A stretch of DNA of 64,000 nucleotides from Candidatus Limnocylindria bacterium. GTDB lineage: Bacteria; Chloroflexota; Limnocylindria; P2-11E. The notes below the pieces were generated by a model. The model did no database searches. It was not told where the DNA came from and saw only the letters and a program-made list of their open reading frames with translations. The DNA lies in the NCBI GenBank assembly GCA_038211425.1, contig JBBQVQ010000001.1, positions 39,991-103,990 on the forward strand. Direction: 5' to 3'. The number at the start of each line of letters is the position of its first letter. The stretch's first letter is position 1. Position numbers and translations under genes: made by a program. Below are positions 15,479 to 20,125 of this stretch, one piece after another.

Positions 15479-17698
15479 ATGCCGATCAGCCGATCCCAGG
15501 CGACCATCAGTGACCGCGCGCTCACGTTCGAGACGGGCAAATACGCCGCGCAGGCCGGCGGGGCCGTCACCGTCCGTTACGGGGACACCATGGTGTTCGC
15601 CGCGTCGACCGTCTCGAAGTCGATACGGCAGGGCATCGACTTCTTCCCTCTCACCGTGGACTTCGAGGAGCGGCTGTACGCGGCCGGCAAGATCCCGGGC
15701 TCCTTCCCCCGCCGCGAGGGCCGGCCATCGGAAGAGGGGATCCTCACGGCGCGGCTCGTGGACCGGCCGATCCGGCCGCTCTGGCCGAAGGGCTTCCGCA
15801 ACGACGTCCAGATCGTCGTGTCCGCGTGGTCGAGCGACCAGGAGAACGACTATGACATCCTGGCGGTCAACGCGGCCTCCGCGGCACTGGTGATCTCGAA
15901 CGCGCCGTTCGAGGGGCCGATCGGGTGTGTTCGCGTCGGCACCGTCGGGGGCAGGCTCTCGCTCAATCCGACGATCCAGCAGATGGACGGCAGTGAGCTC
16001 GACCTCGTGGTCGCGGGAACGAAGGACTCTATCATGATGGTCGAGGCCGGAGCGCAGGAGATCTCCGAGGACAGGCTCGTCGAGGCGCTCGCCCTGGCGC
16101 AGGAGGGCATCGTCAAGATCTGCCAGGCTCAGGAGGAGCTCCAGCGCGCCGCAGGCAAGCCCAAGCTGGACATCGCGGCTCCGGTCCACGATGCCGCGGC
16201 ACACGCACCGGTGCGGACGTTCTTCGAGGAGAGGATCCGCGCTGCGCTGCGCGACCCCGACAAGGCCAAGCGAGAAGCCGGCCTCGACCAGCTGAAGGCC
16301 GAGGCGATCGCCAAGTTCGTGGCGGACGAGGGTGCGATCACCCCCGAGGAGGTCTCCGCGGAATGGGAGAGCGTCCTCGAGCGGGAGTTCCGCACGGCCG
16401 TCGTCGGCGAGAACCTGCGGCCCGACGGGCGCGACACCAAGGCGATCCGGCCGTTGTCGATCGAGGTCGGCGTCCTCCCGCGCGCGCACGGCTCGGGGCT
16501 GTTCCAGCGGGGACAGACCCAGGTGCTCTCAGTCGCGACGCTCGGGCCGTCGGGCGATGAGCAGATCATCGACACGCTCTCGCCCGTCGACACGAAGCGA
16601 TACATGCACCATTACAACTTCCCGCCGTACTCCGTCGGCGAGGTGCGAATGATGCGCGGCGCCAGCCGCCGCGATATCGGCCATGGCGCGCTCGGCGAGC
16701 GCGCGCTCCTTCCGGTCGTCCCGACGAAGGAGGAGTTTCCCTACACGATCCGCGTGGTCAGCGAGACGCTCGAGTCGAACGGGTCGTCGTCCATGGCATC
16801 GACGTGCGGTTCGACGCTCGCGCTCATGGATGCCGGCGTTCCGCTGAAGAAGATGGTCGCGGGCATCGCGATGGGACTCATCGTCCAGGACGGGAAGCAC
16901 ACCATCCTCACGGACATCCAGGGACTCGAGGACCACTACGGCGACATGGACTTCAAGGTCACCGGGACGGACACCGGCGTGACCGCGCTCCAGATGGACA
17001 TCAAGGTCAAGGGGATCAGCCTCGACATCATGCGCGAGGCCCTGGCCCAGGCCCGCGAGGCGCGGCTGTTCATCCTCCAGGAGATGCGGCAGGTCATCGA
17101 CAAGCCGCGCGCGGAGCTGAGCAAGTACGCGCCGCGCATCGACACGATCCGGATCCACCCCGACAAGATCCGCGAGGTCATCGGTCCCGGCGGGAAGATG
17201 ATCCGGGCGATCCAGAGCGAGTCCGGGACGAACGTGGAGGTCGAGGACGACGGAACTGTGCGGATCACGGGCGCGAAGCCCGAGGGCCGCGAGAAGGCAC
17301 GCCAGATGATCGAGGGCCTCACCAAGGAGGCCGAGGTCGGCGAGGTGTACGACGGCAAGGTCACAAGGATCATGAGCATCGGCGCGTTCATCGAGTACCT
17401 CCCCGGCAAGGAAGGCCTGGTACGCGTCTCCGAGTTGTCGTCGGGACGCGTGAACAACGTCGAGGACGTGGTGAAGGTCGGCGACAAGGTCAAGGTCAAG
17501 ATCGCGGAGGTCGACCGGCAGGGGCGCGTCAACCTTTCGATCCGCGCCGTCGAGGAGGGCGATCCGGGAGGGTTCGAGCAGCGCCAACGGGCGGAACGCG
17601 AGCGGTTCCGCGAACGTGAGGGCACCGGGGGCGGCTTCCGACCTCGTCCCGGCCCGGGTGGGGGAGGCTTTCGACGGAGCGGGCCGCCCCGCTCCTAG
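15479..17698 (+). CDS. pnp: polynucleotide phosphorylase (polyribonucleotide nucleotidyltransferase)
   Basis: 739 aa with two RNase PH domains, KH and S1 domains, and a G/R-rich tail. Confidence 0.95.
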
Positions 17699-17871
17699 CG
17701 ACGGGCTGGCCGACGCTCTCGCTCATCCTCCCCGCGTACAACGAGGCTCGCCGGCTACCGGCGAGCCTCGCGCATTGCGCCGAGTTCCTTCGCGCGCGAT
17801 CGCTCGAGGCCGAGATCATCGTCGTCGACGACGGCTCGACCGACGGCACGGGCGCGGCGTTCGCGGACACG

Positions 17872-18483
17872 GTGGCCACCCTTCCCCAGGCCCACCTCGC
17901 CTACCGGCTGCTCCCGATGCCGCACGCGGGAAAGGGGGGGGCCGTGCGCGCGGGGGTCGCGGCCGCGATCGGCGATCCGATCGTCTTCCTCGACGCCGAC
18001 CTCACGATCCCGGTCGAGAGCATCGACATGTTCATCGAGGCGCTGGCGGGAGGCGCCGACATCGCCGTCGCTTCGCGCTACGTCAAGGGTGCGGTCGTCG
18101 AGCGGCCCTGGTGGCGCGTATTCATGGGCGTCGTCTTCCACACCTGCGTCCACCTCATCGTTCCGGTCGATGTGAACGACACTCAGTGCGGCGGTAAGGC
18201 ATACACGGCCGAGGCCGCGAAGTACCTCTTCCGCACCTCGCGCCTGGACGGCTTCGCATTCGACGCCGAGGTGATCTTCCTCGCCCGGAGGGAGGGATAC
18301 CGCGTGGCGGAGCTGCCGGTCGAACTGCGGCAGCGCGGGGAGACGAGCATCGACTTCCTCGCGGACACCCTCCGCATGCTTCGCGATCTCGTGCTGATCC
18401 GGTTCAACGCCGCCACGGGGCGCTACGAAAGGCTCCGGCAACCGGCTCCGTCGCCGAGGCCGAGTCTCGGGCCGGGTGAGTGA
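17872..18483 (+). CDS. GT2-family glycosyltransferase (polyprenol-phosphate sugar transferase / DPM1- or HpnI-like); N-terminus extends upstream
   Basis: 17872 is the first canonical start (GTG). The same frame is open from 17620 and encodes the GT2 hallmarks LSLILPAYNE (about 17716-17745) and VVDDGSTDGT (about 17821-17850) upstream of it. The real start is therefore between 17620 and about 17725 and is non-canonical or unresolved. Confidence 0.7.
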   Translation: MATLPQAHLAYRLLPMPHAGKGGAVRAGVAAAIGDPIVFLDADLTIPVESIDMFIEALAGGADIAVASRYVKGAVVERPWWRVFMGVVFHTCVHLIVPVDVNDTQCGGKAYTAEAAKYLFRTSRLDGFAFDAEVIFLARREGYRVAELPVELRQRGETSIDFLADTLRMLRDLVLIRFNAATGRYERLRQPAPSPRPSLGPGE

Positions 18484-18647
18484 GCGCGCTCCGGGGGGAC
18501 TTCGGCCCCAGAGACCCCCGAGTGGCGTCCGGAGAAGTGCGCACGCCTCCGCGGTCCGCCGTCGATCTCGGCGCATCCCCGGAATGAAGGCGACCCCCGC
18601 TGCATGAGGCTTCTCGCAGCCCCTCCGACCACGGCCCCTCGGGGCCC

Positions 18648-19454
18648 CTGGTCGTCACCGCTGACGACCTGGGCTTCTCGGGAGCGGTGACGCGGGGCAT
18701 CCTCGCCGCGTACCGGAACGGCATCGTACGGTCGGCTTCGCTGCTGGTGACGTTTCCGGGGAGCGCCGAGGCGGCCGCGCTGGCCGTGCGCGAAAGCGGC
18801 CTCGAGGTGGGTTTGCACCTCGACCTTGTGGGGGGGCGGCCGGCGACCGATCCATCGGCGGTGCGCAGCATCGTTGACGGTGATGGCCGCTTTCATCCAC
18901 TCGGCGCGTTCGTGCGCAGGCTCGTCACCGGGCGTGTGCGCGCCGGCGAGATCGCGACGGAGGTGCGCGCGCAGGCGATGCGGGCGCGGTCGTTCGGGAT
19001 CGCCCCACTCGCGTGGGATTCACACCGGCATGTGCACCTGATCCCCTTCATCGCGCGCGTCGTGGGCGGGGTGGCCAGGGACGAAGGCGTGCGCTGGCTG
19101 CGGCGGGGCCGGTCGCCCGACGTCGCGCGAGGCTGGAAGCCACGGGCGCTGTCGGTGTCGACGGTCGCGAGCGAGAGATTCTTCGGCGGCATCCCCGGCA
19201 ACGATTGGTACCTCGATCTGTCGTCGTGGCGCCCGCGGCCCGGTCCCGCGGCACTCGGGCTCCTGGCGAGGGCGCCCGGCTCGGGCGAGCTCGGCTGCCA
19301 TCCCGGCCAGCTCGACGACGGGCCGGACGCGGGCGACGCGCTCGCGCCCCAGCGCGTGGCGGAGCTCGCCATGCTCACTGAACCAGCGCTGCGGGCGGCG
19401 CTCGCTCACCAGGTCGGCTGGCGCGTCCCGGCGCGCTCGGCGCGCGGGGGCTGA
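18648..19454 (+). CDS. YdjC/ChbG/HpnK-family carbohydrate deacetylase
   Basis: Conserved N-terminus LVVTADDLGFS..GI..A...G.V.S.SL (YdjC: LIVNADDFG) begins at CTG 18648. The first GTG is at 18687 and the frame is open from 18588. Confidence 0.7.
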   Translation: MVVTADDLGFSGAVTRGILAAYRNGIVRSASLLVTFPGSAEAAALAVRESGLEVGLHLDLVGGRPATDPSAVRSIVDGDGRFHPLGAFVRRLVTGRVRAGEIATEVRAQAMRARSFGIAPLAWDSHRHVHLIPFIARVVGGVARDEGVRWLRRGRSPDVARGWKPRALSVSTVASERFFGGIPGNDWYLDLSSWRPRPGPAALGLLARAPGSGELGCHPGQLDDGPDAGDALAPQRVAELAMLTEPALRAALAHQVGWRVPARSARGG

Positions 19455-20125
19455 TGCCGGGATCGACGACCAGCGGGGCGCTGCGCGATGCCCTCGAGCG
19501 CTACCGTCAGGCGCGTTTCGACACGCGCTGGCTGGTCCACGGTCGCGCCTTCCTGTCGGACCTGCCGTTCGTCGAACAATACGTTCCGCGCCACGGTTTC
19601 ATCGTGGACCTGGGCTGCGGCCAGGGCCTGTTCAGCAACCTGCTCAAGGAGGTATCGCCGCAGCGCCGCGTGCTGGGGATCGACGTCGATGCGAGCAAGA
19701 TCGAGATCGCCAGACGGACGATCCAGGGTCGGGAGGGCCTGCGCTTCGAGGTCGGCGACATCACGGCAGCTCCGCCGCCGCGCTGCGACGCGATCGTCAT
19801 CGTGGACGTCCTGTATCTCCTGCCCTCCGAGGCGCAGGAGGCCGTCCTGCGGAACTCCGCAACAGCGCTGTCGGAGAACGCACCGGTCGTCGTGAAGGCC
19901 CAGGAGAGATCGGTCGGGCCGAAGTACGCACTCACCTTCGCGCAGGAGATGATGAGCGTCGCCCTGGGCTTCACGCGGGGTGGCCACGGCCTGCATTTCC
20001 CCTCGCGCGGCGAGGCGCTCGACCTCTTTGGACGCAGCGGGCTGCTCGCGCACGTCGTCGAAATGCGCCGCCGCCCGTACACCGACGTGGTGTATCTGGC
20101 GCGAAAAGCGCCGCGGGTCGGGTAG
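19454..20125 (+). CDS. class I SAM-dependent methyltransferase
   Basis: VDLGCGQG motif I, acidic post-I residue, IVIVDVLYLL motif. ATG overlapping the upstream stop. Confidence 0.8.
   Translation: MPGSTTSGALRDALERYRQARFDTRWLVHGRAFLSDLPFVEQYVPRHGFIVDLGCGQGLFSNLLKEVSPQRRVLGIDVDASKIEIARRTIQGREGLRFEVGDITAAPPPRCDAIVIVDVLYLLPSEAQEAVLRNSATALSENAPVVVKAQERSVGPKYALTFAQEMMSVALGFTRGGHGLHFPSRGEALDLFGRSGLLAHVVEMRRRPYTDVVYLARKAPRVG

Follow-up and report, generated by a model that had tools for sequence, protein, structure and literature searches.

Downstream of the polynucleotide phosphorylase gene pnp in a genome of Candidatus Limnocylindria, three co-directional reading frames encode a family 2 glycosyltransferase (GT2), a YdjC-family metal-dependent de-N-acetylase (YdjC) and a class I methyltransferase (MT) dependent on S-adenosylmethionine (SAM). 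They lie in a stretch of 64,000 nt of contig JBBQVQ010000001.1, the whole of which is called the window here. Together with pnp, these genes most likely form a conserved, translationally coupled operon segment of the class. The cassette is real, conserved, expressed and systematically mis-annotated, and its function is proposed by analogy: we see about an even chance that it makes a de-acetylated, methylated amino sugar on polyprenyl phosphate, which a membrane glycosyltransferase of the GT-C type delivers to the envelope, with translation coupled to pnp. Such a polyprenyl-phosphate amino-sugar pathway is plausible, and its coupling to pnp is a notable and distinctive feature.

Conservation of the cassette

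The window has a G+C content of about 70%, and the best matches of its proteins belong to Candidatus Limnocylindria, Chloroflexota. All genes of the cassette are on the + strand, 3' of rpsO. The pnp gene (15479-17698; 739 aa), recognized by its open reading frame and the Pfam domains of its orthologues, encodes a C-terminal tail rich in Gly, Arg and Pro and ends with TAG at 17696-17698; GT2 (256 aa) extends over 17713-18483, YdjC (268 aa, counted from a CTG at 18648) over 18648-19454 and MT (223 aa) over 19454-20125. The triad is followed by a family-4 uracil-DNA glycosylase (UDG), then RNase J and then FtsK. An initial annotation, made from the letters of the window, had named the three domains correctly, as Pfam searches returned Glycos_transf_2 (PF00535, 5.4e-23), YdjC (PF04794, 1.4e-46) and Methyltransf_25 (1e-13). 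The GT2 motifs it had read, PAYNE and DDGSTDG, were placed at 17731-17745 and 17827-17847, and a further motif, DAD, at 17992-18000. Its description of the genes as tightly spaced holds for YdjC and MT, whose stop and start overlap in the reported TGATG (19452-19456), but not for GT2 and YdjC, which are 164 nt apart in the window, though most relatives have an overlap of 4 nt there.

A scan of species-representative genomes provided 80 loci. The order rpsO-pnp-GT2-YdjC-MT-UDG-RNase J is kept in about 60 Limnocylindria metagenome-assembled genomes (MAGs), with GT2 identities of 52-89%, and a check for co-occurrence found the triad together and tightly coupled in essentially every sampled genome of the class. 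An overlap of 4 nt joins GT2 and YdjC in 30 of 59 genomes, and one of 1 nt joins YdjC and MT in 41 of 54; overlaps of this kind are spacings typical of translational coupling (PMC12548453). Gene order and features are thus conserved far beyond chance. At the 3' ends of the pnp genes (17560-17698 in the window, compared with its homologues), the last eight or so codons were also seen to be conserved across the class.

Purifying selection acts on each of the three genes. When the window was compared with the related MAGs L001 and L002, dN/dS amounted to 0.10-0.15 for GT2, 0.16-0.25 for YdjC and 0.15-0.18 for MT, with about 0.05-0.08 for pnp. Values of 0.20-0.37 were obtained over the 53 GT2 codons upstream of GTG 17872 and of 0.16-0.24 over the 13 YdjC codons upstream of GTG 18687, the first canonical starts of the two frames, and from this constraint it follows that the N-terminal motifs of GT2 and YdjC are translated.

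GT2 homologues outside the class, with 41-46% identity, were found in Dehalococcoidia, Thermoflexus, Armatimonadota and Chloroflexia; none of them has YdjC, MT or GT-C within 5 kb, even by search with hidden Markov models (HMMs), and the triad is therefore class-specific in this sample. As their neighbours are heterogeneous and include none of these genes, the context of distant homologues was dropped as a functional clue.

Missing start codons and probable coupling to pnp

Two of the three genes have no canonical start codon where one is expected, a point on which the initial annotation was silent. The GT2 frame contains no ATG, GTG, TTG or CTG before GTG 17872, which falls 3' of both PAYNE and DDGSTDG, and the start formerly placed at 17620 is merely the first codon past an in-frame stop. 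Homologues open with M-LSLILPAYNE, and the codon of the window at this initiator position, referred to as position 1 in the following, is ACG (17713). The junction (17696-17715) consists of the pnp TAG, a spacer of 14 nt and this ACG, from which an N-terminal peptide (M/T)LSLILPAYNEAR would be expected. The same ACG is kept in four independent MAGs (the window, L001, L002/L003 and L004). Because the gene begins at a non-standard codon just past the pnp stop, database entries are truncated: the source's own call was shortened to 203 aa (P0002, 100% identical), and about one third of the entries for GT2 begin at 'MPASLA.C'. The nucleotide-sugar-binding motifs are missing from the truncated entries, with the result that functions assigned automatically and structures predicted from them are wrong.

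A canonical GT2 start is absent in 39 of 59 species, and a non-canonical codon stands 2-15 nt past the pnp stop in 41 of the 59, being near-cognate in 37. The other genes of the locus served as controls and begin canonically in nearly all cases (rpsO 42/42, pnp 47/47, MT 53/53, UDG 53/53 and YdjC 57/58). Sequencing error is ruled out as the origin of the missing starts, given the ACG in four independent assemblies and the spread over 39 of 59 species.

Three architectures were distinguished. In 41 taxa the pnp stop is adjacent, 2-15 nt before position 1 (−1 in L064), and position 1 is ATC in 18, CTG in 14, ACG in four, ATA in one and another codon in four, but canonical in none. In 11 taxa pnp is not adjacent, the gap being 16-155 nt in nine while pnp is absent from the locus in L052 and L054, and all 11 have GTG, TTG or ATG at position 1. 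The remaining seven taxa have a GTG 12-19 codons before position 1, in a frame other than that of pnp, whose tail it overlaps; here position 1 is relaxed to GTC or TCG in six, with ATC in L018. The position-1 codon underwent at least 23 state changes on the tree. Leucine codons at this position are CTG or TTG, never CTC, which makes up 55% of the Leu codons in the gene, and G+C at third codon positions (GC3) is 0.69 in codons 2-7 vs 0.88 over the rest of GT2. Most likely, this dip is the signature of a 5' end and position 1 is the true start.

Of the non-canonical initiators measured in E. coli, AUC, AUA and CUG belong to the best four, reaching 1-2% of AUG, and a protein initiated at ACG bore an N-terminal Met (bioRxiv 10.1101/063800). 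Coupling over a spacing of +3 nt is established for galT/galK and rplK/rplA (PMC12548453). Following these precedents, ribosomes that have come to the end of pnp would start anew 2-15 nt past its stop, using a near-cognate codon, ACG in the window and AUC or CUG elsewhere, and the output of GT2 would be low and tied to the translation of pnp. We regard it as most likely that GT2 is translated by termination and re-initiation from pnp in the window, as in roughly two thirds of the class, with pnp as its upstream coupling partner.

One observation counts against re-initiation, since it fits a second mechanism too: in most lineages without a start the pnp stop is in frame with GT2, as in about 34 of the 41 adjacent-stop lineages without a canonical start, with spacers of 3, 6, 9, 12 or 15 nt. 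GT2 might then be the C-terminal part of an extended PNPase, produced when ribosomes read through the pnp stop. Part of this in-frame bias stems from migration of the stop inside the pnp tail rather than from indels, and pnp is out of frame in the window, L002/L003 and L015 (spacers of 14 or 2 nt), yet GT2 is under purifying selection. Nor would read-through account for the restriction of position 1 to near-cognate codons, with Leu only as CTG or TTG, for the lower GC3 of codons 2-7, as expected of a true 5' end, or for the return of GTG, TTG or ATG at position 1 itself once the gap reaches 16 nt or more. The leakiest stop, TGA, is seldom used by pnp, which ends with TAG or TAA in 46 of 51 genomes. 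On this evidence read-through is very improbable.

It could also be argued that the cassette of the window is decaying, with GT2 and YdjC being pseudogenes without starts or yielding only the truncated products of 203 and 255 aa, which lack the nucleotide-binding and catalytic motifs. Neither gene has a canonical start upstream of its essential motifs, and a clade-specific insertion, described below, breaks the coupling of GT2 and YdjC. The bodies of both genes, in contrast, are free of internal stops and frameshifts, dN/dS is 0.10-0.25 across the window, L001 and L002 and stays at 0.2-0.37 over the 53 GT2 codons that precede GTG 17872, and the layout without starts is kept in four to five independent MAGs, for GT2 in two thirds of the class. 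Pseudogenization was rejected on the dN/dS values, and decay in general is extremely improbable.

The start of YdjC is a matter of its own. Its open frame begins at 18588, with GTG 18687, 3' of the catalytic ADD (18660-18668), as the first canonical start; in a MAG of 98% identity the call was shortened to 255 aa (P0121). While homologues open with MTLVVTADD, the window reads GGG-CCC-CTG(18648)-GTC-GTC, with the conserved N-terminus LVVTADDLG. The GT2-YdjC spacer (18484-18647, + strand) includes an insertion of about 90 nt, which an alignment of the window, L084, L002 and L001 showed to be specific to the window clade, being present in the first three and absent from L001; the spacer of L002 is at 5797-5961. 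To judge from this alignment, the insertion has separated the ancestral, GTGA-coupled GTG (18479) from the body of YdjC, which is left with no canonical start in frame.

Two ways of starting YdjC are possible, namely initiation at CTG 18648, or initiation at ATG 18604 followed by a −1 shift on G_GGC_CCC (18642-18648); in L002 a start occupies the homologous position, and the shift site reads GGGGCCC. Other candidates were discarded. Translation from GTG 18479 with read-through of TGA 18585 is ruled out, as a 1-nt indel between the window and the 98%-identical L084 means that 18484-18583 is not coding. A relay of mini-ORFs with NTGA overlaps from GT2 to GTG 18687 is visible and carries no weight, because any TGA after a non-C base overlaps, which applies to about 65% at this composition. 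Past the possible slippery site there is a hairpin, GGTCGTCA-CCGC-TGACGACC, which is no evidence for frameshifting because it consists of the codons for VVTADD (GTC/GAC). As for an RNA element in the spacer, an Rfam search of the whole window gave no match and the folding of 18470-18660 was no better than that of shuffles (z = 0.66).

Enzyme families and a possible pathway

Judged by its sequence and predicted structure, GT2 is a polyprenyl-phosphate glycosyltransferase-like enzyme of the DPM1/ALG5/ArnC type. Its closest matches by sequence in the PDB are Pyrococcus dolichyl-phosphate mannose synthase (DPMS; 1.8e-16, residues 2-213), ArnC (8e-12, residues 2-227) and also GtrB, and the alignments with DPMS and ArnC extend through the interface helix, to residue 213-227. 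The AF2 model (pLDDT 89) retrieved with Foldseek 18 top PDB matches which are all DPMS, ArnC or GtrB (TM 0.66-0.71), and GpgS came next. Near full-length NCBIfam alignments were obtained with PpgS and a haloarchaeal dolichyl-phosphate hexose transferase, and the JGI name for GT2 homologues is dolichyl-phosphate beta-glucosyltransferase. The best matches of GT2 are therefore polyprenyl-phosphate enzymes and not those of exopolysaccharide (EPS) synthesis or protein glycosylation, an outcome that would have spoken against the initial annotation.

Several details of the sequence agree with this family. The DXD motif of the GT-A fold, which binds metal and diphosphate, is conserved, LDADL aligning with DADLQH of DPMS and LDADL of ArnC, and a segment D-x-x-C-x-x-K/R-A-Y is common to GT2 and ArnC. 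Arg117 and Arg131 of Pyrococcus furiosus DPMS (PfDPMS) hold the acceptor phosphate (PMC5526996); R122 (SRYV) and R135 (PWWR) of GT2 correspond to them in the alignment and do not vary among 23 family members. In the model, two amphipathic interface helices are predicted at 133-149 (WWRVFMGVVFHTCVHLI) and 215-234, and the hydrophobic helix PWWRVFMGVVFHTCVHLIV aligns with interface helix IFH1 of DPMS. GT2 has no transmembrane segment and ends past the second interface helix in a Pro-rich tail. Since DPMS without its transmembrane domain (residues 230-352) is still membrane-targeted and active (PMC5526996), an enzyme without an anchor is plausible. Fold and family are thereby given, and it is from these that we infer the donor and the acceptor.

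YdjC exceeds the gathering threshold of PF04794 by far (159.9 vs 29.7 bits), and a PDB match to the ChbG-type structure 7vi8 (1.6e-18) aligned the motifs ADD, GLHLDL and DSHRHVH (DSHxHxH), according to which its active site is intact. It stays below the curated NCBIfam cut-offs both of ChbG (NF002559; 118.8 vs 227 bits) and of HpnK (TIGR03473; 104.2 vs 232.6 bits), the HpnK score being the lower of the two. For GT2, the HpnI model (TIGR03472) is not among the 22 NCBIfam families matched at E<=0.01, which include only HpnB (36.9 bits) of this kind. The label "HpnI/HpnK-like" used in the initial annotation thus fails, and, by analogy, would better be replaced by polyprenyl-phosphate glycosyltransferase plus NaxD/LgmC-like deacetylase. 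MT, with seven Pfam methyltransferase models above their cut-offs and the motif VDLGCGQG (GxGxG) of a Rossmann-type SAM-binding domain, is by its sequence a class I SAM-dependent methyltransferase; as to specificity, NCBIfam and PDB searches gave generic matches only.

A candidate for a cognate transferase is the membrane protein of 470 aa encoded at 6278-7690 (+ strand), which had been proposed as a GT-C enzyme. This guess is supported by its homologues (67-91% identity), which carry PF09594 (GT87), in many of those with 67-77% identity along with PF26314, and are named 'glycosyltransferase 87 family'; the protein itself matched only ALG3, at 20 bits and below the cut-off of 23.6, and nothing in NCBIfam. 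Its AF2 model, of moderate confidence (pLDDT 70), resembles enzymes that depend on dolichyl-phosphate mannose (Dol-P-Man): Foldseek listed GPI mannosyltransferase I with Dol-P-Man first (6e-5, TM 0.52-0.59), then PIG-U, PimE, ALG6 and ArnT. The gene overlaps both the stop of truB (ATGA, 6278-6281) and the start of ribF (TTGA, 7687-7690) by 4 nt and is therefore spliced into the truB-ribF pair by junctions of the translational-coupling type. It precedes ribF-rpsO-pnp-GT2 directly in at least 12 other genomes, and belongs to the same conserved block as the cassette, at a distance of 4-10 kb with ribF, rpsO and pnp between. In the window, the roughly 6.3 kb between ribF and rpsO (8797-15110) hold a pirin gene on the + strand and, on the − strand, genes for an NMT1-like binding protein, an ABC permease, an HMGL-like lyase and a family III CoA-transferase; many other Limnocylindria lack such a block and have GT-C, ribF and rpsO contiguous.

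A further link between GT2 and GT-C enzymes comes from locus L065, where the closest paralogue of GT2 (62% identity) is found away from any gene for YdjC, MT or pnp. The paralogue adjoins a gene (51-3905, − strand) for a protein of 1285 aa, in which GT87 and PMT/PMT_4TMC domains make up two GT-C modules of a single chain, and a second GT2 is located nearby (GT2 genes at 4998-5720 and 6925-7641). This context ties the GT2 family a second time to GT-C enzymes that depend on polyprenyl-phosphate sugars. Moreover, a gene for the undecaprenyl-diphosphate phosphatase UppP/BacA at 32666-33685 on the − strand (Pfam 2e-77) indicates that the organism recycles a carrier of the undecaprenyl type.

From these elements the following pathway can be proposed. 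GT2, held on the cytoplasmic face of the membrane by its amphipathic interface helices, would move an N-acetyl-hexosamine from a nucleotide sugar onto polyprenyl phosphate. YdjC would then strip the N-acetyl group, as NaxD and LgmC do, to leave polyprenyl-phosphate hexosamine, a substrate suggested by the pairing of the two genes, and MT could methylate this product, most simply, as we infer, at the freed amine. After flipping, a GT-C enzyme, for which the GT87-like protein at 6278-7690 is the candidate, may pass the sugar to an acceptor in the envelope. The earlier idea of a lipid- or polyprenol-linked amino sugar that may subsequently be methylated is plausible and has passed the two checks set for it, on the best matches of GT2 and on co-occurrence of the genes, with N-methylation and the link to GT-C as its putative parts.

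The GT2-YdjC pair might alternatively produce a glycolipid directly, following the logic of HpnI and HpnK. In this case GT2 would add GlcNAc to a membrane lipid (diacylglycerol, a long-chain diol or polyol, or a hopanoid-like lipid) at its hydroxyl, deacetylation by YdjC would leave a GlcN-lipid and MT would act on its head group, so that the product is an end lipid and not a donor for GT-C. Hints in this direction are an invariant Asp (FDAE) at the position of Lys178 in DPMS (PMC5526996), a possible general base for a hydroxyl, and the lack of a counterpart of DPMS Ser135. Hydrophobic interface helices suit any membrane lipid, no flippase was found nearby, and the HpnK match of 104 bits is real, though below its threshold. 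HpnI, in turn, gave no match at E<=0.01, and HpnK remained under its cut-off and under ChbG. The equivalents of Arg117 and Arg131 are invariant, the top 18 fold matches are all polyprenyl-phosphate enzymes, and the L065 paralogue adjoins GT87+PMT GT-C modules, which need polyprenyl-phosphate-sugar donors. We therefore hold direct glycolipid synthesis to be unlikely.

Decidedly unlikely is a soluble pathway, in which a GpgS-like GT2 would act on a phosphorylated or organic-acid acceptor, and YdjC and MT would turn the product into an (N-methyl)glucosaminyl compound of the cytoplasm, for example a compatible solute or a scaffold of a low-molecular-weight thiol, comparable to the glycosyltransferase and deacetylase steps in bacillithiol and mycothiol. 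GpgS is the top NCBIfam match of GT2 by E-value (3e-15) and a good fold match (E ~1e-11 to 1e-10, TM 0.61-0.66); GT2, YdjC and MT all lack a transmembrane segment, and the flanking pnp, UDG and RNase J are cytoplasmic housekeeping genes. The similarity to GpgS is, however, confined to the N-terminal, nucleotide-binding half (residues 1-126), while the full-length profile matches are polyprenyl-phosphate and dolichyl-phosphate hexose transferases and the hydrophobic helix of GT2 aligns with IFH1 of DPMS.

Returning to the polyprenyl-phosphate pathway, several points weigh against it. GpgS, with its soluble acceptor, scores only modestly lower in the fold comparison than the polyprenyl-phosphate enzymes. 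Ser135 of DPMS, which positions the phosphate in IFH1, has no counterpart in GT2 and aligns to a gap or Gly; as GtrB likewise has no clear counterparts (PMC5526996), this residue defines DPMS proper rather than the wider class. The Asp of FDAE could act as the general base for a hydroxyl acceptor, lipid or small molecule, instead of a phosphate. The GT-C gene is 10 kb from the cassette in the window, and mannose donors are the norm for GT87 and PIG-M relatives. A GtrA-like or ArnE/F-like flippase was sought in the window, and none was found. N-methylation, O-methylation or an unrelated role of MT would all fit, because it has no informative relatives, and among the homologues outside the class there was no second independent occurrence of the triad. 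Finally, the pathway is read from the genes of an uncultivated class and from models of their products.

A more specific version, which we consider unlikely as it stands, would have the Limnocylindria envelope bear an N-methylated hexosamine, delivered from the polyprenyl-phosphate donor of the cassette by the GT87-like GT-C, with GT2 hard-wired by re-initiation to the translation of PNPase. If true, this would be a cationic or charge-tuned envelope modification in a lineage without lipid A and a natural, class-wide case of termination-reinitiation replacing the need for a canonical start codon. The polyprenyl-phosphate pathway, if true, would provide a conserved envelope modification in an abundant, uncultivated class of soil and freshwater; a recent paper on Limnocylindria genomics mentions neither the envelope nor glycosyltransferases.

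Two features further downstream were recorded on their own account. The RNase J frame has its first upstream start at TTG 20763 and would from there overlap with the 3' end of UDG (20763-20770); the true start is probably located downstream of this TTG, because relatives are called 25 aa shorter (535 aa). Directly 3' of ftsK, a RodZ-like protein (24505-25896; HTH_25 and a weak RodZ_C) contains an internal Glucodextran_B domain, as it does in L001.

Comparison with known systems

The closest functional precedent would be the combination of GT2, YdjC and GT-C in the FlmF2/NaxD/FlmK system of Francisella and the LgmA/C/B system of Bordetella. In both, an ArnC-like GT2 loads a HexNAc on undecaprenyl phosphate, a YdjC-superfamily enzyme deacetylates it and a GT-C transfers the sugar outside the cytoplasm (PMC11279074, PMC4993483). 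NaxD belongs to the YdjC superfamily and deacetylates undecaprenyl-phosphate-GalNAc (PMC11279074), and lgmABC of Bordetella provides the equivalent route for GlcN (PMC4993483). As in these systems, a GT2 with the polyprenyl-phosphate fold is coupled here to YdjC, the two being adjacent in about 59 genomes, and a GT-C is part of the same block. The likeness to NaxD and LgmC is drawn from gene pairing and enzyme logic rather than from a comparison of sequences. In contrast to Flm and Lgm, GT2 of the window has no transmembrane helices, an MT is added, the GT-C is GT87/PIG-M-like instead of ArnT-like and not adjacent, and the genes are placed in a housekeeping operon and coupled to pnp. The host belongs to a Chloroflexota lineage in which lipid A is expected to be absent, and the acceptor would therefore have to be another one. 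If the proposed pathway is true, the amino-sugar logic of lipid A remodelling in pathogens, with its GT2, YdjC and GT-C, extends to bacteria that have no lipid A. ArnD, also named in the initial annotation, is of a fold family different from YdjC.

In the hopanoid pathway, HpnI, HpnK and HpnJ likewise employ a GT2 and a YdjC-family deacetylase on the way to a glucosaminyl lipid. A search of 23 window proteins, not covering every ORF, revealed no hopanoid genes, neither squalene-hopene cyclase nor HpnJ. HpnI is larger and membrane-spanning, unlike the short GT2 of the DPM1/ALG5/ArnC type described here. In this respect GT2 is more like human DPM1 and the mycobacterial PpgS (Rv3631) with its GT-C Rv3779, which are short (~240-260 aa), comprise the catalytic domain only and supply polyprenyl-phosphate sugars to GT-C transferases. 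PpgS makes polyprenyl-phosphate-GalNAc, which ends as GalN on arabinogalactan, and its NCBIfam model aligns to GT2 almost over its full length (4-196 of 226), at 46 bits vs a cut-off of 370. Unlike DPM1 and PpgS, GT2 has no visible gene for a small membrane partner in the window, which holds a dedicated YdjC and MT.

For the proposed role of MT, the only well-known precedent that we are aware of is the Nod-factor pathway, where the GT2 NodC and the de-N-acetylase NodB are followed by the SAM-dependent N-methyltransferase NodS acting on the freed amine. NodS matches MT weakly, with 19.6 bits, and no better than generic class I methyltransferases do; NodB has a deacetylase fold (CE4) different from YdjC, and the Nod substrates are soluble chito-oligosaccharides.

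Regarding translation, GT2 shares with infC, which starts at AUU, and other conserved non-AUG genes a weak near-cognate initiator that is kept by selection, and with galT/galK and rplK/rplA (+3 nt) a start only a few nt past the upstream stop (PMC12548453; bioRxiv 10.1101/063800). What sets it apart from those systems is that both features are joined and co-vary throughout the class, the non-canonical and usually near-cognate start occurring only where the pnp stop is at most 15 nt away and a canonical one elsewhere. We know of no described case in which the type of start co-varies with the distance of an upstream stop. This co-variation of start and stop offers comparative evidence on how translational coupling works.

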